From: Chiloscyllium plagiosum
Taxonomy: Eukaryota
Length of the DNA: 64,000 bases
Assembly: GCF_004010195.1 (NCBI RefSeq)
Contig: NC_057749.1
Location: 10,813,646 to 10,877,645 of the forward strand
Direction of reading: 5' to 3'
Below are positions 4,143 to 53,181 of the stretch, piece by piece (position 1 is the first letter of the stretch; every line of letters starts with the position of its first letter). Made by a program: the position numbers and the translations under genes. A model generated the notes under the pieces. It did no database searches and was not told where the DNA came from. It worked only from the letters and a program-made list of their open reading frames with translations.

Positions 4143-4366
4143 AAAGTGAGGACTGCAGATGCTGGAAACCAGAGTTTAGATCAGAGTGGTACTGGAAAAG
4201 CACAGCAGGTCAGGCAGCATCCGAGGAGCAGCAAAATCAATGTTTCGGGCAAAAGCCCTTCATCAGCCATTCCCGATGAAGGGCTTTTGCCCGAAACGTC
4301 GATTTTCCTGCTCCTCGGATGCTGCCTGACCTGCTGTGCTTTTCCAGCACCACTCTGATCTAAGCT
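4143..4366. mobile_element. hairpin (palindromic) PLE-derived short element, family A
   Basis: ~95-bp arms fold back around ~4268. TSD CTGGTWACAATGGCA at 4128-4142 and 4367-4381. Confidence 0.8.
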
Positions 4367-11100: not shown

Positions 11101-11898
11101 CTGAGTTCAAAGGATGGTAAAGAGTTAATCATAACTTGTCATTGGAATCACAGGTAGGTCAACCCAGGTCAGGATGGTGTGTTTCTCAGAAGATGAAGTC
11201 CTGCCAATATCAATGACATTTTTTCAACATGGTTACCACCTTCTGGAAGATGTTAGGAAAAGAGTTGGACTTTCAAACAATCTTCACACAAGAATAGTGG
11301 AAATCTAAAATTCTCTCCCAAAACCCTCCTGATAGACCAAGAATCGACTCAAAATTTCAAAACCCGGATGAATAGAGTGTTGGGTTTCTTTCAGCATTTT
11401 GTGTTACATTCTCTGTCACCATGTCCTCTCCCTTTCCCCCATTCCAGTGGGATAGTCTGTTCTTTCCAGTCAGCAAGTTAGATACACCATTGTCCTGCCA
11501 TTCTCACATTCCGATCATTGAATCTGCTCTATCATTCCCCTTTCTCCCCAGCACTCCATCTCCCCACCTCTGCATTAATGCTGCCCCCTTCACATTTTGT
11601 ATCAACTCTGATGAAGAGTCATCTAAACTCGAAATGTTAGCTTTCTCTCTCTCCATGAATGCTGTGTGGTCAGTCATGAATAGAGTTTTTTGAGGCTTGG
11701 TTCTTAAGGGTTAAAGTATAGATCAGCCATGGTTGAAATGAACAACAGTAGTACGGGTTGGAAAGGCTGAAAGGCCTACTCATATGTCTATATCTCACAT
11801 TGCTACTTCGACAACCTAGATTCACAATCCTTCTTCCAACTGGAGACACATCTCACATCAATCAAATGGAAACGCCATTGATATGTTCAGCTCTTTAC

Positions 11899-15540: not shown

Positions 15541-17201
15541 TGCACAAAACAAACAAAATAGACTTCAAAGTCAATGGATTATGTGTCTTATAATAACCAC
15601 GGTGATGTGTTATACAAAGACCGGTTCCTTTAGCTGCCAATGTTAATCTTTAAACACACCTTAAAAGTGCACACAGTTAAAAATGCAAGGATCTGGGTTC
15701 TATCTTATAATTTCAAACTTTGCTTTGATTGAATTTACCCAAATGGCAGCTTTATATCTCTTGATTAAAAACTCCATCCAGTCTGGCAAACTCTGGGCCC
15801 ATTCCTTTGCTGACTGTAGAGTCATAGAGATGTACAGCACAGAAATAGACTCTTCAGTCCAACTCGTCCATGTCGATCACATATTCAACATTAATCTAGT
15901 CCCATTTGCCAGCATTTGGCCCATATCCCTCTAAACCCTTCCTCTTCATGTACCCATCCAGATGTCTTTTCAGTGTTGTAACTGTACCAGCCTCCACCAC
16001 TTCCTCTGGTAGCTCCTCCTGTGATTTGATGAAGGAGCAGTGCTCTGAAAGCTAGTACTTCCAAATAATCCTGTTGGACTATAACCAGCTGTTATGTGAT
16101 TTTTAACTTTATATTTATCTAGCTCCTCTAGTGTAATGCAACATCCACACAAAAGCATTTATGGTGACCCCTAAGGAGATAATGAAACAAAGTTTGGTCG
16201 AAGCCCAGTCAAAGATTTAAGGAGCACCTTAAGTAGAGGCAAAAAGGTTTACAAAACTTGGAACTTAGGGTTCAGGCAGCAGAGTGTGGGATGGGGTGAC
16301 CTAAATGCTGAAGACTTCCAAACAGAGCTGAAAGAAGTGCAGATATAGAGTCACACAGCACAGAAACAGTCCAACTCATCCATGCCAAACAAGCTTCCCA
16401 AACTAAACTAGTCCCACTTGCCTGCATCTGGTCAATATCCCTCTAAACCCTCCCTATTCATGCACCCATCTGATAATTCATTCCACACATGAACCACCCT
16501 CTGTATGAAAATGTTGTCCCTCAGGTCTGTTTTCAATCTTTCTCCTCTCCCCTTAAAAATATGCCCCCTTGTTTTGAACTCATTCACCCTAGGGAAAAGA
16601 CCTTTACGATTCACCTTTTCCATTCCCCTCATATTTTATAAACCTCCGTAAGGTCACCCCTCAACTCCTATGTTCCAATGAAACAGTCCCAGCCCATTCA
16701 TCCTTCCTTATAACTCAAACCCTCCAATCCCAGCAACATCCTTGTAAATCTTTTCCGAACAGTCTCCAATTTCATTCCTATAATAGGGCGACCAGAAATG
16801 TACACATTACTCCAAAAGTGACCTCACCGTCATCCTGTATGAGCTCAACATGATGTGCCAACTCCAACACTCAATGGTCTGAGCAATGAAGGCAAGAGTG
16901 CTAAACGCCTTTCTTGTAGGACTGTGGGAGTGGAGGAGTTTACCCATTTAGGGAGGATAACCATGAAGAAGATTTGAGCATTCTTGTAAAATACTACGCT
17001 ATAATACTGTAACATTGCCTTCTGCCAGGACCACCTGGGATATCTTGGATGTGATGTATTGTAACTAAACCTTCTTGTTAGTATTAGTATGTGTTCCTGA
17101 TACCTAGTGGAGAAAGATACACACACAACATCTTAGACAACAGATAGATTCTGGCTTGGTTAATCCAGTTAATGTATTACCTAATAGTTAGTTACATTAC
17201 A

Positions 17202-18128: not shown

Positions 18129-18932
18129 GTTACATTACACCCAAGATACATGATTGTCTTTTGTGAGACCATGGGTTCAGCTGAATAAATACGTGTTACT
18201 ACTTTAGTTCCATGCTATTAGCATTGAGAAGAATGGCTAAAGCACTCCTCATTCCTGGGAGTACATGGAGAACTCATAGGACTGGTTAGCTCCTCCCAGT
18301 AAAAGTTATTTACATTTTGATAGGCAGAGTTTATCTCTTGTTGTCAGTTAACCCTTTCAGCTAATGACTGCCTTATACATACACACAGTTTAAGGTGGAG
18401 GCGTTGCTTGGCCAACAAGTGTCAGCAAGCTCAGAGCAAAGATGCTTTCATACTGCTCTAAGACTCTAAGTGAATCACAGCTACCAACAGGGGCCAGTAT
18501 AGTCACAATGGGGCGTATGGCCTCTTTCTGTTCCATAATGACATGGTAATTCAGTGACTTATCAATTCATGGCCATTGGTGGGTGGGTTTATGTGCATGT
18601 ATGTAGGTTTGTGTGTGTGTCTGCAGGTAATAGAGTAAGGATAGAGTGTGGGATGTGTGAGATTAAGTGAATGAGGGTGAACATCTGTGTGTTGATGGAT
18701 GGTATGGGTCTCTGTAAAACAGTAAAGTCACCATAGACTTATCAGACTGTAGGGCTGCTCTCTCTAATGAGAGAGACAACTGATGGTGGTTTGACCTGAG
18801 GGTTACCACGGGAAGAGGTTGAAAAGGAGAGTCCTTCACAGTAACTCAGCCAGTGTGGGAATTGAACCCACACTTTCACTATCACTCTGCCCTGCAAACT
18901 AACTGTCCTGCCAACTGAACTGACTGACTCTG

Positions 18933-28600: not shown

Positions 28601-28802
28601 TAAAAATCACACACAACAGGTTATAATCCAAACAGATTTAATTGGAAGCACTAGCTTTCGGAGCACTGCTCCTTCACCATCTAATGAAGAAGCAACACTC
28701 CGATAGCTAGTGCTTCCAATTAAACCTGTTGGACTACAACCTGCTATTGTCTGATTTTTAACTTTGTACATCCAAATCCAACACCAGCACCTCTAAATCA
28801 TG
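28601..28802. mobile_element. hairpin PLE-derived short element, family B (degenerate)
   Basis: Fold-back around ~28680 of the same sequence as the 30938/32287 termini. Single arms also at ~16025-16110, ~29290-29430 and 46871-46990. Confidence 0.7.
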
Positions 28803-31025
28803 TCTCTCAATCAACATATGAGTCCAGAAAATCATGCTGATTTGGGAGATTTCTAGGTGTGAATTGGTTACCACAATTCCTACCTTACAACAGGAACCAC
28901 ATTTCAACGTGTATTGACTGAAGTTTCTGAACAAGCTGCTATAGAAATGCAAGTAACTTTGCTTTAGGTAAAACAAAATCTGTGTTACATCGATAGTTTA
29001 AATTATGTTCATTGGTGAGACTTGACTCCTGATTGGCCTCTTAATGATTACAGAGTTAAATACCTTTCAAAAAACACTTGCATGTGAGGGTTACATGACT
29101 TGAAATGAAAGATCAGGGAAAAGCAGCATTTATTGCCCATTCCTAATTGTCACGTGGGCAGTTATGATCAATCTTAAATATGTTCTCCAAATAATTCCAT
29201 TAAAGAACTGTTCGATTACAAACAGGAATATCCAACACTGAGACATTCTCGAAATTCTTACTGAACCATTAAAGACAGCTTTGTTTTAAGTGATGTGGAG
29301 GTGCCAGTGTTGGACTGGTGTGGACATGTTTAAAAAATCACACAACCCCAGATTATTGTCCAACAGATTTATTTGGAAGCACTAGCTTTCGGAGTACTCC
29401 GAACACTTGTACTTCCAAATAAACCTGTTGGGTAATTAGGGATGCGTGATAAATGCTGGTCTGGCCAAAGTCTGTGAATGAAAATCATTTGATATTGAAC
29501 AGAGAAGTAGAGGTTGGCTATTCAGCCCTTTATCCAGTTCTGCAGATGGAAGACCCATGGCTGATGGCTTGTGTGACAAATTCCACATTGCCATTTACTT
29601 CCCCCGATAACCTTTAATTCCTTTCCAAAACAGAACCCCTCTACCTCCACTTGAGAAATATTCAATGAGCCCCACCACTACCACCACCTTTTGAGCTAGA
29701 GGGTTCCAAAGTCGCTCAGACCAGGCAATTCTCTTCCTCTCTGACCAAAGGGATGATGCCTAATTTTAAAGCAGTGCCACCTGTTTCTATTCTCACCTAC
29801 GAAAGGAAATATCCCTTCCTCGTCTACTTTGTGAAGGTCATAGCATCTCTGCAGTGTGGAAGCAGGCCATTTGGCTCATTGAATCCACACTGACCCTCAG
29901 AGCATCTCATCTAGACCCAACCCTCTACCCCTGGATTTCCTATGGCCTATCCACCTAGCCTGCATGTCCCAGGAGACTATGGGCAATTTGGCATGGCCAG
30001 TCCTCTCTAAGCCACACATCTTTGGACTATAGAAGCAAACCGGAACACCTGGAGGAAACCCACACAGACACAGGGAGAATGTGCAAGTTCCACATAGGCA
30101 GTGACCCGAGGCTGGAATTGAACTCTGGTCCCTGGCATTGTGAGGCAGCAGCGCTAACCACTAAGCTACTTCTGATATACTCCAATCAAGTCACTCCTCA
30201 TTCTCCTCAACTCCAAGGGAAACAAGCCCAGTCTGCATCTGCATAACAAACCAACTCATTCCAGGTATCAGTCTTTTAAACCTCACTGAACTACCAATGA
30301 TGCACTTGTAACAAAGAGACCACAAATACACACATTGCGTTTGTCAGATCCTTGATGTAAATGGAGTACTTGAGAGACAATGAATCACTTTGGAGTTCTG
30401 TGACTTATTTCAGCAGGTAAGATTCCATAAATAATGACAAATGTGTGTAGACCAAGATTTATAGCACCGGTTGCATTGTCGGCAGGTTCTCAGGCGACAG
30501 AGAAAGTTAGCCCAGCTGCTGACATTTAACACTTTAAAGCTTGCTCTGAATTGAGGCACCTCCCCCCTCCGTCTCTCACTTGGTGGATACATCTCCTTCT
30601 AAACTGGGTGTTGGTTGGTGGCTTCCTAATGACCGTCCAATTTGAGATTCTGCTTACTGTCCCTCGATTGGGTGGCAAGTCCACCCTCCTGGCCAATTTG
30701 TAGAATGTTTCTTCTTAGTGACTGTGCGCCACCAAGTGTAGGGTTGTGACCCCTGTTTGACCCCAGCAGCTGAACACATTGGAATGTCATCAAGTGAGGG
30801 GGAGTTAGCCTTGAACTGGCAACCTTCTAACCTCGAGGAGAGAGTGGTAACACTGGGCTGATCAGATAAGGAGCAGCATAAATCAGATGCCCGTAGGAAG
30901 GAGACATCAGCAGCCATAGTGACCTAGAGGATTTAAGATTTGGAGATGCCGGTGTTGGACTGGGGTGTACAAAGTTAAAAATCACACAACACCAGGTTAT
31001 AGTCCAACAGGTTTATTTGGAAGCA

Positions 31026-31060
31026 CACTAGCTTTCGGAGCGTCGCTCCTTCATCAGGTG
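31026..31060 (-). ncRNA. minimal type-I hammerhead ribozyme motif (family B)
   Basis: Minus strand CAC-CTGATGA-A-GGAGC-GAC-GCTCC-GAAA-GC-TA-GTG: stem I CAC/GTG, 5-bp stem II, palindromic AGCT helix III. Confidence 0.7.
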
Positions 31061-31740
31061 ATAGTGGAGGGCTCGATCGTAACACAGAATTTATAGCAAA
31101 AATTTACAGTGTGATGTAACTGAANNNNNNNNNNNNNNNNNNNNNNNNNNNNNNNNNNNNNNNNNNNNNNNNNNNNNNNNNNNNNNNNNNNNNNNNNNNN
31201 NNNNNNNNNNNNNNNNNNNNNNNNNNNNNNNNNNNNNNNNNNNNNNNNNNNNNNNNNNNNNNNNNNNNNNNNNNNNNNNNNNNNNNNNNNNNNNNNNNNN
31301 NNNNNNNNNNNNNNNNNNNNNNNNNNNNNNNNNNNNNNNNNNNNNNNNNNNNNNNNNNNNNNNNNNNNNNNNNNNNNNNNNNNNNNNNNNNNNNNNNNNN
31401 NNNNNNNNNNNNNNNNNNNNNNNNNNNNNNNNNNNNNNNNNNNNNNNNNNNNNNNNNNNNNNNNNNNNNNNNNNNNNNNNNNNNNNNNNNNNNNNNNNNN
31501 NNNNNNNNNNNNNNNNNNNNNNNNNNNNNNNNNNNNNNNNNNNNNNNNNNNNNNNNNNNNNNNNNNNNNNNNNNNNNNNNNNNNNNNNNNNNNNNNNNNN
31601 NNNNNNNNNNNNNNNNNNNNNNNNNNNNNNNNNNNNNNNNNNNNNNNNNNNNNNNNNNNNNNNNNNNNNNNNNNNNNNNNNNNNNNNNNNNNNNNNNNNN
31701 NNNNNNNNNNNNNNNNNNNNNNNNNNTCACGAAGAACATT

Positions 31741-32068
31741 TTAGATTAGATTACTTACAGATTAGATTACTTACAGTGTGGAAACAGGCCCTTCGGCCCA
31801 ACAAGTCCACACTGCCCCGCCGAAGCGCAACCCACCCATACTCCTACATCTACCCCTTACCTAACACTACGGGCAATTTAGCATAGCCAATTCACCTGAC
31901 CTGCACATCTTTGGACTGTGGGAGGAAACCGGAGCACCCGGAGGAAACCCACGCAGACACGGGGAGAATGTGCAAACTCCACACAGTCAGTCCCTGAGGC
32001 GGGAAATGAACCCGGATCTCTGGCGCTGTGAGGCAGCAGTGCTAACCACTGTGCCACCGTGCCGCCCA
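31741..32068 (-). mobile_element. young HE1-type SINE
   Basis: Full-length copy inside the family-B element. Confidence 0.9.
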
Positions 32069-32199
32069 CGAACATGGCGTAATTTTTCAGCTCCTGGGAA
32101 AGGCTTAACAGACAATCAATTTTTCAATGTATAATTTCAGTTACATCACACTGTAAATTTTTGCTATAAATTCTGTGTTAGGATCGAGCCCTCCACTAT

Positions 32200-32234
32200 C
32201 ACCTGATGAAGGAGCATCGCTCCGAAAGCTAGTG
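32200..32234 (+). ncRNA. minimal type-I hammerhead ribozyme motif (family B)
   Basis: CAC-CTGATGA-A-GGAGC-ATC-GCTCC-GAAA-GC-TA-GTG; inverted partner of 31026-31060. Confidence 0.7.
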
Positions 32235-35200
32235 TGCTTCCAATTAAACCTGTTGGACTATAACCTGGTGTCATGTGATTTTTAACTTAGAGGATTTAAG
32301 CCAGTGTTGTGCAGTACATTAGCCGCATGTGGCTAATGGGTAAACCAGATGTGTCTGACTGACCAATGAGTAGAAAATGAGTAATAGATGGCTGTTGAGC
32401 ATCTGATATTTATGTTCTTATATTCACAGTCCATGAACTTTAACCAGTTTGTGAGCATGTTGATAAAATGGAAAACAATGTGGGTCACTGTTGGTTGATG
32501 TGAATCCCTTGCTTACTGAATCAGTAGACGTAATTGACACAATGTCCAGGTGCAATGTAAGTTCAACCTGGATTTTGAAGCACCCAAAATGCTTTGTACT
32601 GAAGTTTCATGGGGTTAGAGTTGAATCCATGCCTGTGGCCATTACATATTTACACTAATTATGTTCCCTGGGATTTAAAAGCTTAAGGGGCAATTTGATC
32701 AGCATTTCTAAATTATGAAGGGGAACGGTATCAGGTACGCTGCAAGAAACCATTCCTTCTGGTTGGAACATTCATAATTGGAGAATATCTAAAAATTAGC
32801 CCCAGACTTGGATGGATTGGAACTAGGAACACATTCTCCGTGAGGTGGGAGCTGGGAACTCTCTTCTGGAAATACCAATTATTGCCGGATAAGTTCACTT
32901 TAAAACTGCGATCTGATAAAGTTTTTGATAACTAAATATGGTAAGCGACAGGAGGCAAAGTTGAGTACGTAGTGTTATGAACCAAACCAAACCCCGTCAC
33001 AAAATTTTAAAAAGGTAGCCTAGGCTCTAACCTTTTCTTATTTTAAAAGTAGATGTGAAGTGCCGTGTTCCTGATGCAATGCATCAAACTTCTCCGTGTT
33101 AATCAAAATACAATTTATTTCCTGATTGGGCTGATGAAGGGCTTATGCCTGAAACACCAACTCTCCTGCTCCTCAGATGCTGCCTGACTTGCTGTGCTTT
33201 TCCAGCGCCACACTTTTTTACCTCAGCAATTTATTTAAGCTTTACAGTTTAAAATACAAACAAAACAATTTAGGATAACTTAGCTATTTAAAAAATGTAA
33301 TAATAGATGCAGTGCCTATTACTAATTAACTGTTCCAATACAGTAACACCCCATAAACACAGCCCTTGATAAAAAGGCAAATTCAGACACAGATTCTTAC
33401 ATGCAGTTCTTCAATCCAGGAGGGAAAAAAAATCATTGAGCGGCACGGTGGCACAGTGGTTAGCACTGCTGCCTCACAGCGCCTGAGACCCGGGTTCAAT
33501 TCCCGACTCAGGNNNNNNNNNNNNNNNNNNNNNNNNNNNNNNNNNNNNNNNNNNNNNNNNNNNNNNNNNNNNNNNNNNNNNGCGGGTCGGTGTGGACTTG
33601 TTGGGCCGAAGGGCCTGTTTCCACACTGTAATGTAATCTAAAATTCAGTGGAAGTAGCAGCCAGAAGTTATTCACTGAAGCTTCCAACTCTGAGATCCCA
33701 AAGGCCTCTGCTTAGAAAAGGCTGACTACACCAAGGCTGCTTCCATCATTCCAACTTTCAAAAACATACCCAAGGCCTCTCCGAATTGTTTACTTTCTTA
33801 GACACAACTCCGTACTTCTGCCTTACAACTTCTCTTTCTAAAAAAAAAAGGGCAAAATAACCTCTTAAGGTGATAGGAATGTCACATGGGAGTGAGGTCC
33901 CAGAATGGCCTCATGGAATGGCGGCATGAGAAGTCAACTCCAGTCACTAGGTTGTATTGCAAAACACTGCTTTGGAACAGGGTTCTCGTAACTGCAGGGG
34001 GGGGGTCATTAGCTGAAATTTCAGGGTCCCAAACACCAGTGCGTTTCTAAGTTTTTTTTTAATAAGAGCTGCTCCATATCAAAAATGCTCCCCCCCTCCC
34101 CCCAGCGCACCCTTTCATTGGTTCCCACTCCCATCATGTGACTTATCTTCTCCTGAGTTCCCGCTGAGTGGTCGCGACCATTTTAAAGCTTCCAATGGGG
34201 TCATGGTGAATGTGGGAGCAATGTTTTGGGGAGCAGGGCTCTGGAAACTGCAAACTCTGGTGAGATGCTACATGAACCGGTGATCCCCAAATTCAGTTTT
34301 TGGCCAGCGCTGAACTAGGGAGCTGTGGCAACTACTCCATTCTCCAAATTATTTTCGCAGCATATCTTCTCTCTTTCTAATTTTTGGCAAAGGGGTCAAA
34401 GGATTCCCCGGGCTGATTACCAGTCTGGTGAACTGTATTGTAGACATTTTATTTATCGTTGATTCCTGGGTTGGAAGTTGGATGTGGAGCTTCTAGCCCA
34501 GGAGTAGGGACGTAGAGAAAGAAGATCTTGTAACTCAAAATTGTAAGGAGAAATAAGTTGAGATGAGGACACATTTTAAAAAAAAACAGAATGTGAACTC
34601 TTGTGGTGCATGGAACTAAATCATAACAAGAGTCAATGCGTTGTAACGCATCCAAAACAGTTGATTCGGGGGAAAAAGAATTGAACAACTGAACTGAAGT
34701 GTGGGGACTGTTCAGTGGGTTTATGACCTTGCCTGCAGTGCAAACTAGTCCAGGTTCTGCATGATTAGTCCATTAGTTACAGCTGACACGGCAGAACAGC
34801 AAACATTTGACTGTGACCCTTTGCTAATTGTTAGGGTTATGCTTTAGAGAGAGAGGAAAATACACTCCGACTTCTTTGATCATCAGAGATGGTAGTAATG
34901 AAAACTTCATGGGTGACACAATCTGTGTTTTAACAATTTTCCCAAGAGTACTTGTTATTTGCATTTGAAAAGGGACCATCTAACCTGTGTCTGTGGAGAC
35001 GATACTGACTGACCCATCTCTCTCTCCCCACAGGGCAAGTAATTGAGTTTATCCCTCAGTTTGCCCTCCTTTCAGTGAGGGTGTGTAATTCAACTCTTAC
35101 ACAAATATTTACACAAGGTTCTGGAATGTCTTCTTCTAACTCTCAACCTTGTGCCATTTATCTCCGGTGACAAGATATTTATTGTTTCAGAGTCCTTCAG

Positions 35201-38030: not shown

Positions 38031-39878
38031 GTAAGTTTTACCTCTCTTTACTCCATTCAGCTCTTAGTGTGTGCTTTATAAGCAAATGTCTTTGATTCTC
38101 GAGTCAACTTTTTCCATTTCAAGTGAGACAGATAAGCAAACAAGAAGCATCGAGTCATTTCGATGTTTTAAAAGAAAAGGTTTGGTCAACTTCTTCTGTC
38201 AGTTGTGGGGCAATTTTTTTTACTGTTTTGACATTGCGTTGCAAGATTTTAAACTTCATTGCTTCTGTCTCTCTTGGTGCAGCACTGAGGAACTGCTGCA
38301 CTGCCAGAGGTGCCATCTCCAAAGACAATGGCTACACTGGTAATTCAGAGATCCAGGATAATGCACTGGGGTCATGGGTTCAAATCCTAGCAAGGCAGCT
38401 AGTGGAATTTAAATTAAGTTGATACAGTCTTGAATATAAGATTATTCTCCATTTCATAGTCGCTACTATCATCAATTGGCTTTTTTAAAAATATCTGGTT
38501 CACCAGTGTCCTTACTTACATGTAACTCCTGACCCACAACAATGTGGTTGACTCTTGACTTCCCTCTAAATTCACTAGCATTGAAGGAAATTGAGGATGT
38601 ATAAATTCTGGCCTAGTCAACAGTGACAATATTCCATGAAGGAATGCTGTCACATCCTGGGCTCCCTAGTTATGAAAAGAGGTGTTTTTTTTAAAGAACA
38701 GCAAGTCTTACGTTTCCAGTCCTCAGAAAGGCTTTCACCATGAACAGCAGAGATTGAAAGTCTCTCGCTGATTTTCTTTCTCCCCTTTCGCAACCAGTCT
38801 GATTTGAAATTAAAATTGGTGAGGGACGTTTGGAGTGCGGGACCCCTCGCTGAGGTGGGAATATTAAACAGGACTCTGTTCAGATTAACCCACACTATCA
38901 CCAGGAGTAGAGGCTTCAAATTAGCAACAGAGGGGAAACTGATGCTGAAATGAATTACCTTGTTTGGGAAAGTGGCATGGGATCTGATGGTTAACTAATC
39001 TGGACTATTTCTGATGGATTTGGGGGCAGGGGAGGGGTGGGGGTGGGGAAGAGGAGTGTTGGTGGTGGAAGGGGAGGTTAGGACTCCTTGTCCTTCTAGG
39101 ACTTAAAAAAAAGATTTATAAGGATGTCACCGAGACTGGAAATTTGGAGCTCTAGGGAAAGGCTGGGGCTACTTTCTCTGGAACGTCGGAGGCTCAGGGG
39201 TGACCTTATAAAGGTTTATAAAATCATGGGGAACATAGATAAGTTGAATAGCAAAGTCTTTTCCTTAGGCTAGGGGAGTCCAAAACTAGAGGGCACAGGT
39301 GAGAGGGAAAAAAATTTATAAGGGACCTAAGGGGCAACTCTTTTGTTCAGAGGGTGGTGCATGTATGGAATGAGCTGCCAGAGGAAGTGGTGAAGGCTGG
39401 TACAATTACAATATTTAAAAGGCATCTGGATGGGTATATGAATAGGAACGGTTCAGAGGTCTATAGGCCAAGCAAATGGTTTAGTTTAGAAAACCTGGTC
39501 AGTATGGAAGAGTTGGGCCGAAGGGCCTGATTCAGTGTTGTATGACTGACTAGGAGGCATTGTTTTCAAAATTTGAGCCAGGCTGGATTTAGGGAATACC
39601 TTTACACATGAAGGAAAAGACTGCAATTTGCAACCCTCTTGTGCAGACTGCAAGCAAAGTTGTGATGTTTGATAAATTTTGGTTTACCATAGAGCTTTGG
39701 GGATGTTATGGAAAGGCCCTTTTTGGTTGCAGATCGATCATTATCTCATTGAATGGATGTTGGAACAGGCCTGTTGCCATATTTTGACTGTTTGTTTGAA
39801 TGATCTGTTCCTGCATGAGACCCTTCAGCCGGGGTCTAGGTGCTCCATAAGGGACTGAGAATCCTTGTTTTCTTTCAG

Positions 39879-39964
39879 CTTGTTGTGCTGGTGTTCCTGT
39901 CCTTCTTTGTCAAGCGGAGCCGACTGTGCAGGACCTGCTGCAGTGGAGCGCCTGGTCTGTTGCA
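39879..39964 (+). CDS. STRA6: STRA6 coding exon 3
   Basis: tttcag acceptor; LVVLVFLSFFVKRSRLCRTCCSGAPGLL(H) (human [29 protein letters not shown]). Weak donor CA|GTTAAG, phase 2, matches the next exon. Confidence 0.88.
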
Positions 39965-40005
39965 GTTAAGTGTCTGCTGGCATTCCGGTCCCCTGGGTCA
40001 GTGTT

Positions 40006-43319: not shown

Positions 43320-43803
43320 TTCAGCCCATTTGGTCTGCTCCACCATTCGATCGTGGCTGATGTGTTTCTCAACCTCATTCTCCTGCCTTCTCCCCATAAC
43401 GTTTGGGTTATATTCAAGAGCCTATTTACCTCTTCTTTAAAGACACTGGGTGACTTGGCCTCCAAATTCCTCTGGGACAATGAGTTCTTCCAATTCACTG
43501 GCCTCTGGCTGAAGGAATTCCTCCTCATCTCAGTTCGAAAGGGTAATCCCTTCGCTCTGAGATGGTACCTCTGGTCCCAGGCTCTCCTACTGGGGTTGGA
43601 ATGTCTTCTGCATGTCCACTCTATCCAGGCCTCTCAGAATACTGACCCTTTGACTAAGGGGAACAGCTACTCTCTGACACATGGTAATCCATGAGTTTAA
43701 AGAAACATTGACCCTGGTAGTTTAATGCAGCTCAAAGTCATTTTAAGTAACGCATTTTCTCTGTCGCTTTATTTTAATTTGGGCAAATGCTGTGTATTTA
43801 CAG

Positions 43804-45090: not shown

Positions 45091-47549
45091 GTAATGATTT
45101 ACTTTGTTTTCTGTTTATGCAACCATCTTAAGTTTTAATCAGCTCATTCCAATTACTGTTCTGACAGAGTTACTATTGTTGCAATGTGAAACGATTGGTA
45201 GAATCGCAGTACAATGATCTTTTTCTCTCCTTATCTGGCAGGGGGGTGGGGAGCAATTTCTTCTACTCCTGAATGCTGGGAACCAAGAGGAAATCTCTCC
45301 CAATCCACTTTTGCCCTGATTGCAAAACAAAATTGTCTCTCCGATATTAGCAGTCTGAACGCAACAAGAGCTTGTCTCTATGACCTAAAATTAATTTAGT
45401 CTTGAAGCCCCTTTTATTGTTTGTGACGTCAATTGCGAGTGCTATATTCCACGAGGTTTTGTCGTCTGATTTTGCTACTGGCCTATCCCCACAATCACTG
45501 TGATTGGTTACCCAACACGGTCATCCTATTGGTGCGCAGCCATGTTTTTCATTATCCAATTGGATGGTAATTGTCTCCGTTACTTTAATTATTAATAGTG
45601 TCCACAGACAGGAAGATAAATTTACTTTTAAGATCCCTTTATTTTTCTCCAGTGGTATTGGTAACAAATACAGTCTAGCCTCTTTTTACTAAAGGAAGAA
45701 TATATTAGCTGTTAGAAAGAGTGCATTGAAGGTTCACCAGTTTGATCCCTGGCCTGGTGGGACGATTGTATGTGGAGAAATTGAGGAGACACTTCAGAAG
45801 AGTCATATCTGATTTGAAATGTTAATGCTGTAACTCTCTGCACAAATGCTGCCAGACCTGCTGAGCTTCTCTCTTATTTTTGAGTTTGTTTGAGGAGGTA
45901 GGGCCTATTGTTCTCTGGAGCCATAGAGATGTATAGCATGGAAACAGACCCTTTGGCCCAACGCATCTATGCTGACCAGATATCCTAAATTAATCTAGGC
46001 CCATTTGCTGGCATTTGACCCATATTCCTCTCAACCCTTCCTCCACAGAAGGCTGTGGAGGCCATATATATGATATTCAATATAGTATATATGGAGATAG
46101 ATAGGTTCTTGATTGTCAAGAGGATCAAGATCATGGGGGAAAAAGCAAGAGTCATGATTGAGTCTGCTCCACCAATCAATGAGCAGAATAGTCTAATTTC
46201 TGCTCCTATGTCTTATGGTCTTATTCATGTACCCATCCAGATATCTTTTATATGCTGTAATTGGCAGCTCAGTTTGTATATGCACCACCCTATGCACAGA
46301 AACGTTGCCCCTCAGGTCCCTTTTAAGTCCTTTCCCTCTCACCTTAAACATTTGCCCTCTCGTTTTGGACTCCCCTACCCTCGGAAACTAGTTTGGCCAT
46401 TTACCATGTCTACATCTCTCATGATTTTATATTTTTTTATACGGTCACTCCTCAGCCTCCAATGTTCTAGGGAAAATAGCCCCAGCCTATACAGCCTCTC
46501 CCTATAGCACAAGCCCTCCAAGCCTGGCAACATCCTTGTAAATCTTTTCTGAACCCTTTCAATCTTGCCTGCAGCAGGGAGACTTGAATTACACATAATA
46601 TTCTACAAGTGGCCTAACCAATGTCCTGTACAGCCACAACATTACCTCCCAACTCCTATACTCAATGCACTGACTAATGAAGGCAAGCATACCAAACCCC
46701 TTCTTCACTACACTGAGCGCCTCAGACTCCAATTTCAAGGAACTATGAACTGCACCCCCAGCGTCTCTGTTTGGTAACATTCTCCATGATGTTCGTATTA
46801 AGTGTATAAGTCCTGCCCGGATTGCCCTACCAAAATGTATGGAATAATGAGAGGTAATATCATTGAAATCCTGATGAAGGAGCTGTGCTCTGAAAGCTAC
46901 TGCTTCCAAATAAACCTGTTGGACTATAACCTGGTGTTGTGTGATTTTTAACTTTTGTACACCCCAGTCCAACACCGGCATCTCCAAATCTTGCAGAAAT
47001 CAACAGGTTAATTGCAGGAAGGTTTTCTCCCTTACTTAGGGTGTCTACAACCAGGGGCACAGTCTTGGAATAAAGGCCAGTTAGATTGAAGGTGAAAGGA
47101 ATTTATTCACTGAGAGGGCGATGAATCTCAGAATTCTCTACCTCAGAAGCTCAGTTACTGAATGTGGTCAAGACAGCGATCAATAGCTTTCTAACTATTC
47201 AAGTTATCAAGGTAAAAGAAGATTTTGCAGGAAAACAGCATTGAGATAGAAGATCAGATACAATCAGGCTAGAGGGGCCAAATGGCCTACTGTTGCTCCC
47301 CTTCCCTAATTTCCATGTGCCTGTGTCCTGGAGCTTGGCAATTAGGCTCACTGTCAACCCCCACTTGATGACCTAGTTTGTTACTGTAAGATGATCAGTG
47401 TTCCTGCTTAATCAGTTTACTGGGGAGGCAATGGCCTAATGGTGTTATTGCTATAGACTGTTAATCCAGAAATACAGCTTATGTTCTGAGGACCTAGGTT
47501 CAAATCCCACAATGGCAGATGGAGGAATTTGAATTCAATAAATGCTTTT

Positions 47550-53065: not shown

Positions 53066-53181
53066 GCAAAAGTGAGGACTGTGGATGCTGGAAACACTCC
53101 TGATGAAGAGCTTTTGCCCGAAATATCGATTTTCTTGCTGCTCTCATGCTGCCTGACCTGTTGTGCTTTTCCAGCACCACT
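53066..53181. mobile_element. internally deleted family-A PLE-derived element in STRA6 intron
   Basis: Head plus CTGATGAAGAGCTTTTGCCCGAAA arm. 14-bp TSD CCATATTTCCTCTG at 53052-53065 and 53182-53195. Confidence 0.75.

Follow-up and report, generated by a model that had tools for sequence, protein, structure and literature searches.

The window analyzed here is a 64,000-nucleotide stretch of the Chiloscyllium plagiosum genome that contains exons of a STRA6-like gene on the plus strand, with RBP_receptor matches from position 43784 and a weak one at ~39858, and, upstream of these, an insert bounded by a target-site duplication. The duplication, TAGAGGATTTAAG, is an exact 13-nt repeat visible by reading the sequence and by repeat search at 30925–30937 and 32288–32300. 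Within it, the repeat search returns a single inverted pair, 30972–31124 and 32136–32288, composed of two 153-nt arms that are 96% complementary and spaced 1011 nt apart, as expected from the preliminary description of a duplication-bounded insert with reverse-complement arms. The arms differ at six of 153 positions (30987, 30988, 31016, 31043, 31044, and 31079) and are unequal in extent: the left arm reaches 35 nt beyond the right, to 30938, and the right arm stops at 32287. A run of 602 N (31125–31726) occupies the center of the insert. Neither a direct repeat of the unit nor a pseudo-LTR (pLTR) tandem was found by repeat search in 30700–32500. In Penelope-like elements (PLEs), the direct partial tandem that forms pseudo-LTRs is frequent but not obligatory, according to the sections of Craig et al. 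(2021, PMC8557442) used here.

The insert comprises two pieces of one PLE in opposite orientations. The main copy lies on the minus strand and has a complete 3′ terminus at 30938, including an AC-rich 35-nt tail (30938–30972) that is seen at the left end only and is missing from the right arm. Its 3′-terminal 187 nt (30938–31124) are 93–97% identical, over all 187 nt, to family 3′ ends elsewhere. On the other side of the N run, two minus-strand coding-region pieces, 31727–31739 (antisense on the plus strand) and 32068–32100, flank a secondary SINE-like insertion (31740–32067). The first piece, TCACGAAGAACAT, is contiguous with the second in the longer family copies L064, L065, and L067, a continuity that the SINE-like repeat splits. 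This repeat is flanked by an imperfect 8–11-nt duplication (ACGAAGAACAT / ACGAACAT), occurs at 72–94% identity in many unrelated loci, contains no tRNA detectable by ARAGORN, and entered the main copy later. The second piece forms the 5′ end of the truncated main copy, in the open reading frame (ORF) between the reverse transcriptase (RT) and endonuclease parts, ~1,330–1,360 nt from the tail-less 3′ end; positions 32070–32100 are 97% identical to L064:1747–1777 and to the matching places in L065–L067, in an orientation opposite to that of the right arm. The main copy is cut off at 32100, ~1.4 kb from its 3′ terminus, and owing to this 5′ truncation it lacks the RT part.

At this cut-off, the main copy is joined head to head, with a 3-nt microhomology, GAA (32098–32100), to a plus-strand, tail-less copy of the same 3′ region. 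This inverted partial copy (32098–32287) is 190 nt long and corresponds to the interval from 225 to 35 nt before the element's end. The arms are not two pLTRs but the 3′ end of a 5′-truncated main copy and a 190-nt inverted partial copy from the same insertion. We infer that the main copy is continuous across the N run. The homology flanking the run lies 187 nt and ~1,330–1,360 nt from the 3′ end of the element; a copy free of internal deletions would have ~1,160 nt of element in place of the run, and the gap is about half that length.

Each arm contains a complete minimal hammerhead motif, CAC-CUGAUGA-A-GGAGC-NNN-GCUCC-GAAA-GC-UA-GUG, at 31026–31060 on the minus strand (loop GAC; pattern match with 0 mismatches) and at 32200–32234 on the plus strand (loop AUC; pattern match). 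As first described, there is one motif per strand, and a direct comparison of the sequences shows that the two copies are identical except for the stem-II loop. Chance does not explain the motif: a search with a 29-nt pattern, allowing up to 3 mismatches, returns five places in the window and none in 100 shuffles. Both copies have the catalytic core, C3 U4 G5 A6 N7 G8 A9 and G12 A13 A14, supplied by CUGAUGA and GAA. The segment GAA-A-GC-U-A provides the A15.1–U16.1 pair and A17, a non-G at the cleavage site H17, which places the predicted cut in the minus copy after the A of GCUA, between 31029 and 31028, and that in the plus copy between 32231 and 32232. Helix II is formed by five Watson–Crick pairs, GGAGC/GCUCC, in both copies and is closed by G10.1–C11.1. 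An extra unpaired A follows CUGAUGA, between A9 and G10.1, and a palindromic AGCU replaces helix III; the extra nucleotide and a palindromic 15.2–16.2 are listed in PMC4209133 as recurrent features. In helix I, just the 3 bp of CAC/GUG pair, the next positions being U–U and A–G.

The Rfam hammerhead models expect a helix III hairpin, and minimal motifs have none. A search with these models, which the preliminary description had proposed as a check, yields no match at gathering scores across the whole window, nor even at E ≤ 10 in 30800–32450; an abundant class of minimal hammerhead motifs is thus missed by these models. The two ribozymes had also been called intact, a description that is apt for the sequence but not for the predicted fold. 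In an 81-nt context, the energy model gives a minimum free energy of −22.0 kcal/mol for a structure in which an upstream CCUCC pairs with stem II. The hammerhead-competent fold, at −16.0 kcal/mol, is 6 kcal/mol worse, and the probability of the stem II pair is 0.003. The monomer motif is therefore predicted to misfold or to be trapped. In a read-through transcript, the arms are predicted to pair with each other into a ~153-bp duplex.

The coding capacity of the family comes from its long copies. In L064–L067, the 3′ unit runs without interruption into sequence coding for the RT and the endonuclease, and all four copies have broken ORFs. No intact full-length element is present among the seven long loci (L031–L033 and L064–L067), in which the longest open frame is 360 aa. 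The segment L065:1733–2665(−) matches Pfam RVT_1 barely above threshold (E 6.2e-7; 29.8 bits against a cut-off of 29.6). A 292-aa ORF, L064:1256–2131(−), matches 31 longer proteins at E ≤ 0.001; by precomputed domain assignments, most of these carry RVT_1 and three also carry GIY-YIG. RVT_1 is present in the homologues P0001, P0004, and P0017. In P0017, residues 647–931 align to the L064 ORF with 33% identity (E 3e-41), and the alignment crosses into a Pfam GIY-YIG domain at 870–954 (E 4.9e-6). The family's own ORFs have no direct match to Pfam GIY-YIG; by homology, a GIY-YIG endonuclease would lie C-terminal to the RT. The earlier attribution to PLEs is thereby strengthened, as the arms represent the 3′ terminus of a family in which longer copies code for an RT and a GIY-YIG-type endonuclease, and the sequence relationships support a retroelement insertion of the Penelope-like, probably endonuclease-positive, kind. 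The family has two classes of 3′ ends, at unit position 225 (47 of 92) and at 186–201 (41 of 92), with the hammerhead ~90–125 nt from the 3′ end.

We consider the stretch, with a probability of about 0.9, to be one endonuclease-positive PLE insertion that was dead on arrival. An origin not from an autonomous PLE but from a non-autonomous hammerhead retroelement, either a non-LTR retrozyme or a SINE-like element, would account for the many family copies that are merely 90–350 nt long, and PLE-derived retrozymes occur in vertebrates including one cartilaginous fish, as stated in the part of Li et al. (2026, bioRxiv 10.64898/2026.07.22.740005) drawn on here. This origin is very unlikely, because the left copy runs on into PLE coding sequence (31727–31739 and 32068–32100), the 3′ unit is continuous with RT/endonuclease-coding sequence in L064–L067, and the region has only inverted arms and no tandem direct repeat. 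Inverted arms and a target-site duplication are likewise what a fold-back DNA transposon or a MITE with terminal inverted repeats, carrying a hammerhead-like string by chance, would display. The termini are not symmetrical, however, differing by 35 nt; the inner ends of the arms lie at different element positions; the arms derive from the 3′ end of an element that codes for an RT; and the target duplications of family members are not of fixed length, varying from 9 to 15 nt. A DNA transposon is accordingly an exceedingly improbable source.

The same architecture is found elsewhere in the genome. In 25 of 27 head-to-head pairs, one arm has the tail and the other stops 27–39 nt short. An exact flank string of at least 9 nt is common to both sides in 18 of the 27 pairs, compared with 4 of 702 mismatched controls. 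These pairs bear on the possibility that scaffolding across the gap created the inverted duplication. Such an artefact is suggested by the 602-N run between the arms and by the N runs that adjoin copies at many family loci, and PLE inverted structures are known to upset short-read assemblies, a difficulty noted in the consulted sections of Craig et al. alongside inverted 5′-truncated copies and a 30–40-bp tail that is often at one end only (PMC8557442). It is nonetheless a very improbable explanation, in that the arms differ at six positions, unbroken sequence spans the junctions that join the right arm to the main copy and to the duplicated target, and the architecture with its duplications recurs in N-free loci such as L006, L015, L018, L020, and L064.

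A single PLE insertion of this form may have arisen by a route adapted from experiments on the anole element PAc in vitro (Frangieh et al. 2024, PMC11167929). The RT-endonuclease would nick both target strands, ~13 bp apart; from each nick, cDNA synthesis on element RNA would be primed at one of two internal start sites; and the two cDNAs would then be joined. In that work the tail is the stretch between the two RT start sites (PMC11167929), and priming of this kind would explain why the tail is present at one end only. Since the hammerhead is near the 3′ end, the inverted duplication gives each strand a motif of its own. Hammerheads of active elements are believed to work on multi-copy transcripts, as dimers or with protein help. 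The relic is expected to have no ribozyme activity, given that no second same-strand motif for a dimer lies nearby, the monomer is predicted to misfold, and the arms would form double-stranded RNA. For annotation, the locus is an example in which an assembly gap together with inverted arms and a 35-nt tail on one side indicates a single PLE insertion and not a fold-back element or an LTR pair.

Dimeric hammerheads were reportedly described by Forster et al. in 1988 (as cited in PMC4209133 and PMC6765202) for newt satellite 2 and some viroids, where helix III is said to be too weak for a monomer and a two-motif dimer was proposed. In contrast to these, helix III at the locus is only a 4-nt palindrome, and there is no nearby second motif on the same strand. 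Animal non-LTR retrozymes were reportedly the subject of work by Cervera and de la Pena in 2020 (PMC7229834). Similar to the locus, retrozymes have a type I hammerhead, a weak helix III, a relationship to PLEs, and a short non-coding unit, but in the available portion of Li et al. (2026) they are tandem direct repeats that give rise to circular RNAs, whereas the locus has inverted arms and PLE coding sequence. Endonuclease-positive PLE units (PMC8557442, in the parts used; PMC11167929) share with the locus and its family 5′ truncation, an adjacent inverted 5′-truncated copy, a 30–40-bp tail at one end, a hammerhead near the 3′ end, and an RT followed by a GIY-YIG endonuclease; the locus differs from the units in those parts of PMC8557442 by having no direct pLTR tandem. 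The ORF of the anole element begins within stem II (PMC11167929), whereas at the locus the frame opened by the AUG of CUGAUGA runs for 8 codons before a UAG ends it at the cleavage site.

A close correspondence is with the PLE minimal hammerheads of Cervera and de la Pena (2014, PMC4209133), insofar as the sections used here describe them. Like the locus, these have a CUGAUGA...GAAA core with an extra unpaired nucleotide between A9 and G10.1, a G10.1–C11.1 pair, no helix III hairpin, a palindromic 15.1–16.1 (AGCU), and a short helix I, and they occur in thousands of copies per genome, mostly in truncated elements and with some pairs on opposite strands. At the locus, helix II has 5 bp, as against 7–8 bp in the Schistosoma families, and helix I has 3 bp; for helix I, these sections give 4–5 bp for most families and 2 bp for D. 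virilis, and they make no mention of sharks.

The plus-strand motif had been placed inside the STRA6 pre-mRNA on condition that a 24.8-kb exon is real. This proposal finds no backing, as the first coding segment that could be detected begins ~7.5 kb downstream of the insert, and the 145 of 192 open frames scanned include no RBP_receptor match located upstream of the insert. The insert may lie in a 5′-UTR intron of the STRA6-like gene. A host-adopted ribozyme that cuts the STRA6-like pre-mRNA or another host transcript would fit the orientation of the plus-strand motif, which matches that of the downstream gene, and its intact sequence. However, the coding match at ~7.5 kb is weak, and the first above the Pfam cut-off is 11.5 kb away; 45 of 71 family copies are equally intact in the motif, so intactness here needs no selection; and the predicted folding is unfavorable. 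In addition, PLE minimal hammerheads are poor cleavers in vitro, as far as the consulted part of PMC4209133 goes, and the anole hammerhead cleaves only with the element's protein (PMC11167929). Host adoption is extremely unlikely, and there is no reason to expect an effect on the neighboring gene. The insert is an ordinary truncated PLE copy of an already known kind, one of tens of thousands of decayed tail-end copies.

Across the 3.56-Gb genome, the pattern CTGATGAN{12,18}CGAAAGCTA has 14,295 + 14,028 = 28,323 matches, compared with 0 + 2 for its backwards control. These exact matches, for this family alone, exceed the ~4,000 copies in coelacanth and ~9,000 in Xenopus, obtained with a different descriptor, in the material used from PMC4209133. 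The same core is found with three other versions of stem II, GGGC/GCCC, GAGC/GCUC, and GAGUC/GACUC, all noticed initially in a stem-blind text search; subsequent counts were 41,716 and 2,690, with controls of 0. The three exact patterns together give >72,000 minimal hammerhead matches, which makes this assembly good material for the role of the motif in PLEs. That stem II pairing is kept with different letters across families argues for selection on the fold between families, as judged from sequence. Among copies of this young family, conservation of the hammerhead is unexceptional: its non-CpG divergence of 1.46% compares with 3.00% for the flanks, and the window holding the motif is ~33rd lowest of 191.

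Head-to-head junctions concentrate within ~15 nt upstream of C3. Core pairs with a 0–30-nt spacer number 7,228, compared with 1,171 at 31–61 nt, and family junctions per bin number 3,496 covering the 5′ edge of the motif, 363 within the motif, and 315 around the cleavage site. It is possible, though doubtful, that the hammerhead is the turning point of PLE fold-back insertions in the C. plagiosum genome. If so, the stretch from hammerhead to tail would be an RNA module held by the RT-endonuclease and copied from both nicked strands, and the conserved role of the motif would be structural, as a boundary of the ribonucleoprotein, rather than cutting, because almost no genomic copies start at the cleavage site.

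The window (C40:10813646-10877645, C40 being the handle of contig NC_057749.1) belongs to an assembly of 3.56 Gb in 101,977 contigs. As stated in the preliminary description, the insert is bounded by a target-site duplication and has reverse-complement arms: identical copies of the 13-mer TAGAGGATTTAAG lie at 30925–30937 and 32288–32300, and a repeat search finds a single inverted pair between them, 30972–31124 versus 32136–32288, which is 153 nt long and 96% complementary, with mismatches at six positions. The left arm, on the minus strand, extends to 30938 and is the element's true 3′ end, including a 35-nt AC-rich tail that is absent from the right arm. A run of 602 N (31125–31726) stands between the arms, where ∼1,160 nt would be expected if the main copy is free of deletion. 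Right of this run, a piece of the Penelope-like element (PLE) coding region, located ∼1,330–1,360 nt from the tail-less 3′ end of the element and oriented as the left arm (minus), is split into two halves, 31727–31739 and 32068–32100. The split is caused by an abundant SINE-like repeat (31740–32067) with an imperfect 8–11-nt duplication on its flanks and a doubled 16-nt unit (AGATTAGATTACTTAC) at one end, in which ARAGORN found no tRNA. The main copy meets the inverted copy at 32098–32100 (GAA), and the latter, which covers element positions 225 to 35 as numbered from the 3′ terminus, occupies 32098–32287 on the plus strand. The insert combines a 5′-truncated PLE copy that lacks RT coding capacity with a partial copy in inverted orientation.

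With the right arm as query, copies at 95–97% identity are found on many contigs. A SINE-like unit of 225, 318 or 347 nt was considered and rejected, because each apparent 5′ end was merely the end of the query copy, and stepwise extension upstream, through fresh queries and flanking sequence, led to copies that share more than 2.7 kb and contain ORFs. Interrupted ORFs on the sense strand of L064, one of the long copies, show reverse-transcriptase and GIY-YIG-like motifs. Decay is evident in every long copy examined, and no open frame exceeds 360 aa. One family ORF matches Pfam RVT_1 at 29.8 bits, barely above the cut-off of 29.6; four ORF pieces from L064 gave no Pfam match at E ≤ 0.01, and a direct Pfam match to GIY-YIG was not obtained on the family's own ORFs. 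A 292-aa C-terminal ORF matches 31 longer proteins at E ≤ 0.001; uncharacterised shark proteins rank highest among them, and the majority carry RVT_1. This ORF aligns to residues 647–931 of one homologue, P0017, across the Pfam GIY-YIG domain of that protein (870–954). From the RVT_1 match, the 31 homologues and the P0017 alignment, we conclude that the family is an endonuclease-positive PLE. The earlier classification of the insert, a PLE with minimal hammerheads, is confirmed, the RT and GIY-YIG evidence coming from the family. Its arms, belonging to a truncated main copy and an inverted partial one, are not a pair of pLTRs. Fold-back PLE insertions with minimal hammerheads are a kind already described (PMC8557442, PMC4209133). 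Separately, the annotated shark host proteins P0006, P0014, P0019, P0024, P0026 and P0029, among them isoforms of septin 5a, PPP1R12A-like, XRCC5 and a muscarinic receptor, hold 24–57% of the PLE ORF query at 43–94% identity, which points to either exonised fragments of PLEs or artefacts in the gene models.

The architecture of the insert is typical for the PLE family. Among 92 family 3′ ends, taken from loci fetched for other purposes, 47 have the tail (unit position 225) and 41 stop 24–39 nt short of the tail end (positions 186–201). Head-to-head pairs combine one arm of each 3′-end class in 25 of 27 cases, and an exact flank string of at least 9 nt is common to both outer junctions in 18 of the 27 pairs versus 4 of 702 mismatched controls. 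Several head-to-head loci are free of any N, which argues against an assembly artefact. In PLEs, as described in PMC8557442, an inverted 5′-truncated copy lies beside the main copy, and a 30–40-bp tail is often found at one end only. The protein of the anole element PAc nicks and extends both strands, and its reverse transcription uses two internal start sites whose spacing equals the tail length (PMC11167929). By analogy, the insert may have formed by a PAc-like route in which both strands were nicked and extended from two internal start sites. Of the first 30 loci, 12 have N runs, 182 to more than 1,400 in length, directly adjoining a PLE copy: L001, which is the window's own, and L002, L005, L007–L009, L011, L013, L016, L017, L028 and L029. 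These runs fit the difficulty that PLE inverted structures are reported to pose for short-read assemblies (PMC8557442).

Each arm contains a complete minimal hammerhead motif, CAC-CUGAUGA-A-GGAGC-NNN-GCUCC-GAAA-GC-UA-GUG, at 31026–31060 (minus) and 32200–32234 (plus), with the loop as the sole difference between the copies; the original observation is real and its description accurate. In each copy, the core is complete, A15.1 and U16.1 are present, and A17 stands at the predicted cleavage site; helix II has 5 bp with the closing pair G10.1–C11.1, an extra A follows A9, and the palindrome AGCU takes the place of a helix III hairpin. Helix I has 3 bp only. The full core, G10.1–C11.1, the extra nucleotide after A9 and the AGCU palindrome are shared with the PLE minimal hammerheads as listed in PMC4209133. 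The motif pattern matches five times in the window versus none in 100 shuffles, and 28,323 times exactly in the genome versus two for a backwards control, an occurrence far beyond chance. Rfam hammerhead models, the search proposed in the preliminary description, give no match either at the gathering score or at E ≤ 10, a miss that is attributed to the models and does not count as refutation. Lunse et al. (2017) is reportedly a study of dimeric PLE hammerheads. Among copies of the young family, the motif shows somewhat better conservation than the flanks, with non-CpG divergence of 30/2,053 versus 356/11,882, but other 35-nt windows are better kept, the motif ranking ∼33rd of 191. Each arm is ∼2.1% from the family's modal sequence. 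The motif is intact in 45 of 71 family copies, and two intact motifs in one insert are therefore unremarkable.

A text search of the sequences collected for the analysis, blind to the stem, finds further families that share the core and the extra A, but in which the stem II sequences are different yet still complementary. Stem covariation across genomic copies, which the preliminary description had looked to, is thus seen between families, and because the letters of stem II differ while complementarity is kept, the comparison offers evidence for selection on the hammerhead fold. Two further stem II patterns have 41,716 and 2,690 genome matches (controls 0), counts that measure abundance and not covariation, as both stem strands were fixed in the patterns; the three patterns together give 72,729 exact matches in the genome. 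In the window, minimal motifs of other families are located at 4243–4266 (minus), 11608–11634 (plus), ∼33131 (plus) and 53100–53123 (plus), with stem II GGGC/GCCC or GAGU(C)/(G)ACUC and a helix III ACGU decayed at CpG.

In an 81-nt context, the energy model gives a minimum free energy of −22.0 kcal/mol for a fold in which the upstream CCUCC pairs with the 5′ strand of stem II and the core is buried; the hammerhead-competent fold is at −16.0 kcal/mol, with a stem II pair probability of 0.003. For a single RNA across both arms, predicted arm pairing amounts to −269.7 kcal/mol versus −70.2 kcal/mol for the arms folded apart. Cleavage by published PLE hammerheads is weak and requires either a dimer or the element's protein (PMC4209133, PMC11167929), and in anole PAc, motif mutations were without effect on insertion in vitro (PMC11167929). 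Because the predicted folds are unfavourable and the published relatives are weak and dimer- or protein-dependent, both motif copies would be expected to be inert. The AUG in CUGAUGA opens a frame that ends after eight codons at a UAG spanning the predicted cleavage site (32205–32231, and in family copies), whereas the ORF of anole PAc is reported to start at this AUG (PMC11167929); no ORF start was found for the present family.

The junctions of fold-back copies are unevenly placed with respect to the motif. In a sample of the first 20 places of the genome motif-pattern list (L068–L087), selected by the exact motif only, homology to the reference is lost 1–6 nt upstream of C3 in nine copies, and in most of these nine the upstream DNA is an inverted copy of the same 90–125 nt. 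Genome-wide, head-to-head pairs of the core number 7,228 with a 0–30-nt spacer versus 1,171 with 31–61 nt (controls 0). A marker 3′ of stem II gives 363 pairs at 0–30 nt versus 3,496 at 31–61 nt (controls 0), and one just past the cleavage site gives 315 pairs at 0–30 nt (control 0). Since the spacer counts differ by marker position, junctions appear to be most frequent at the motif's 5′ edge, within ∼15 nt upstream of the core, and to be rare inside the motif or at the cleavage site. This is a lead rather than a measurement, because the counts presuppose arms that are roughly symmetrical and depend on exact markers. The window itself contains a tight head-to-head pair of PLE 3′ modules, 28602–28679 (minus) and 28678–28766 (plus), with the arms joined a short distance upstream of CUGAUGA, two solo 3′-module fragments that start at the motif, 16027–16108 (plus) and 46870–46953 (plus), and a further fragment at 29330–29394 (minus). 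These short fragments are 84–90% identical to the reference.

The plus-strand motif had been placed, on condition that a 24.8-kb exon is real, inside the STRA6 pre-mRNA, a placement that the surroundings do not support. RBP_receptor (STRA6-type) exons are found on the plus strand from 43784 onward, and a weak match to profile positions 14–49 at ∼39858–39965 scores 18.6 bits, below the cut-off of 25. As this is the first detectable coding match, the insert is at least 7.5 kb upstream of detectable STRA6-like coding sequence. Of the 192 plus-strand open frames of at least 35 aa between 18000 and 43800, the scan covered 145, all but 43 with a start before 23535 and four located in the SINE-like repeat, and no RBP_receptor match upstream of the insert was found among the scanned frames. 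A location in a STRA6-like 5′-UTR intron, although possible, is unsupported. At gathering score, Rfam gives a single match in the window, a tRNA at 18847–18929 (minus), which scores 32.2 bits, has a 28-nt insertion in the variable part of the model, and may represent a pseudogene or the head of a tRNA-derived repeat.
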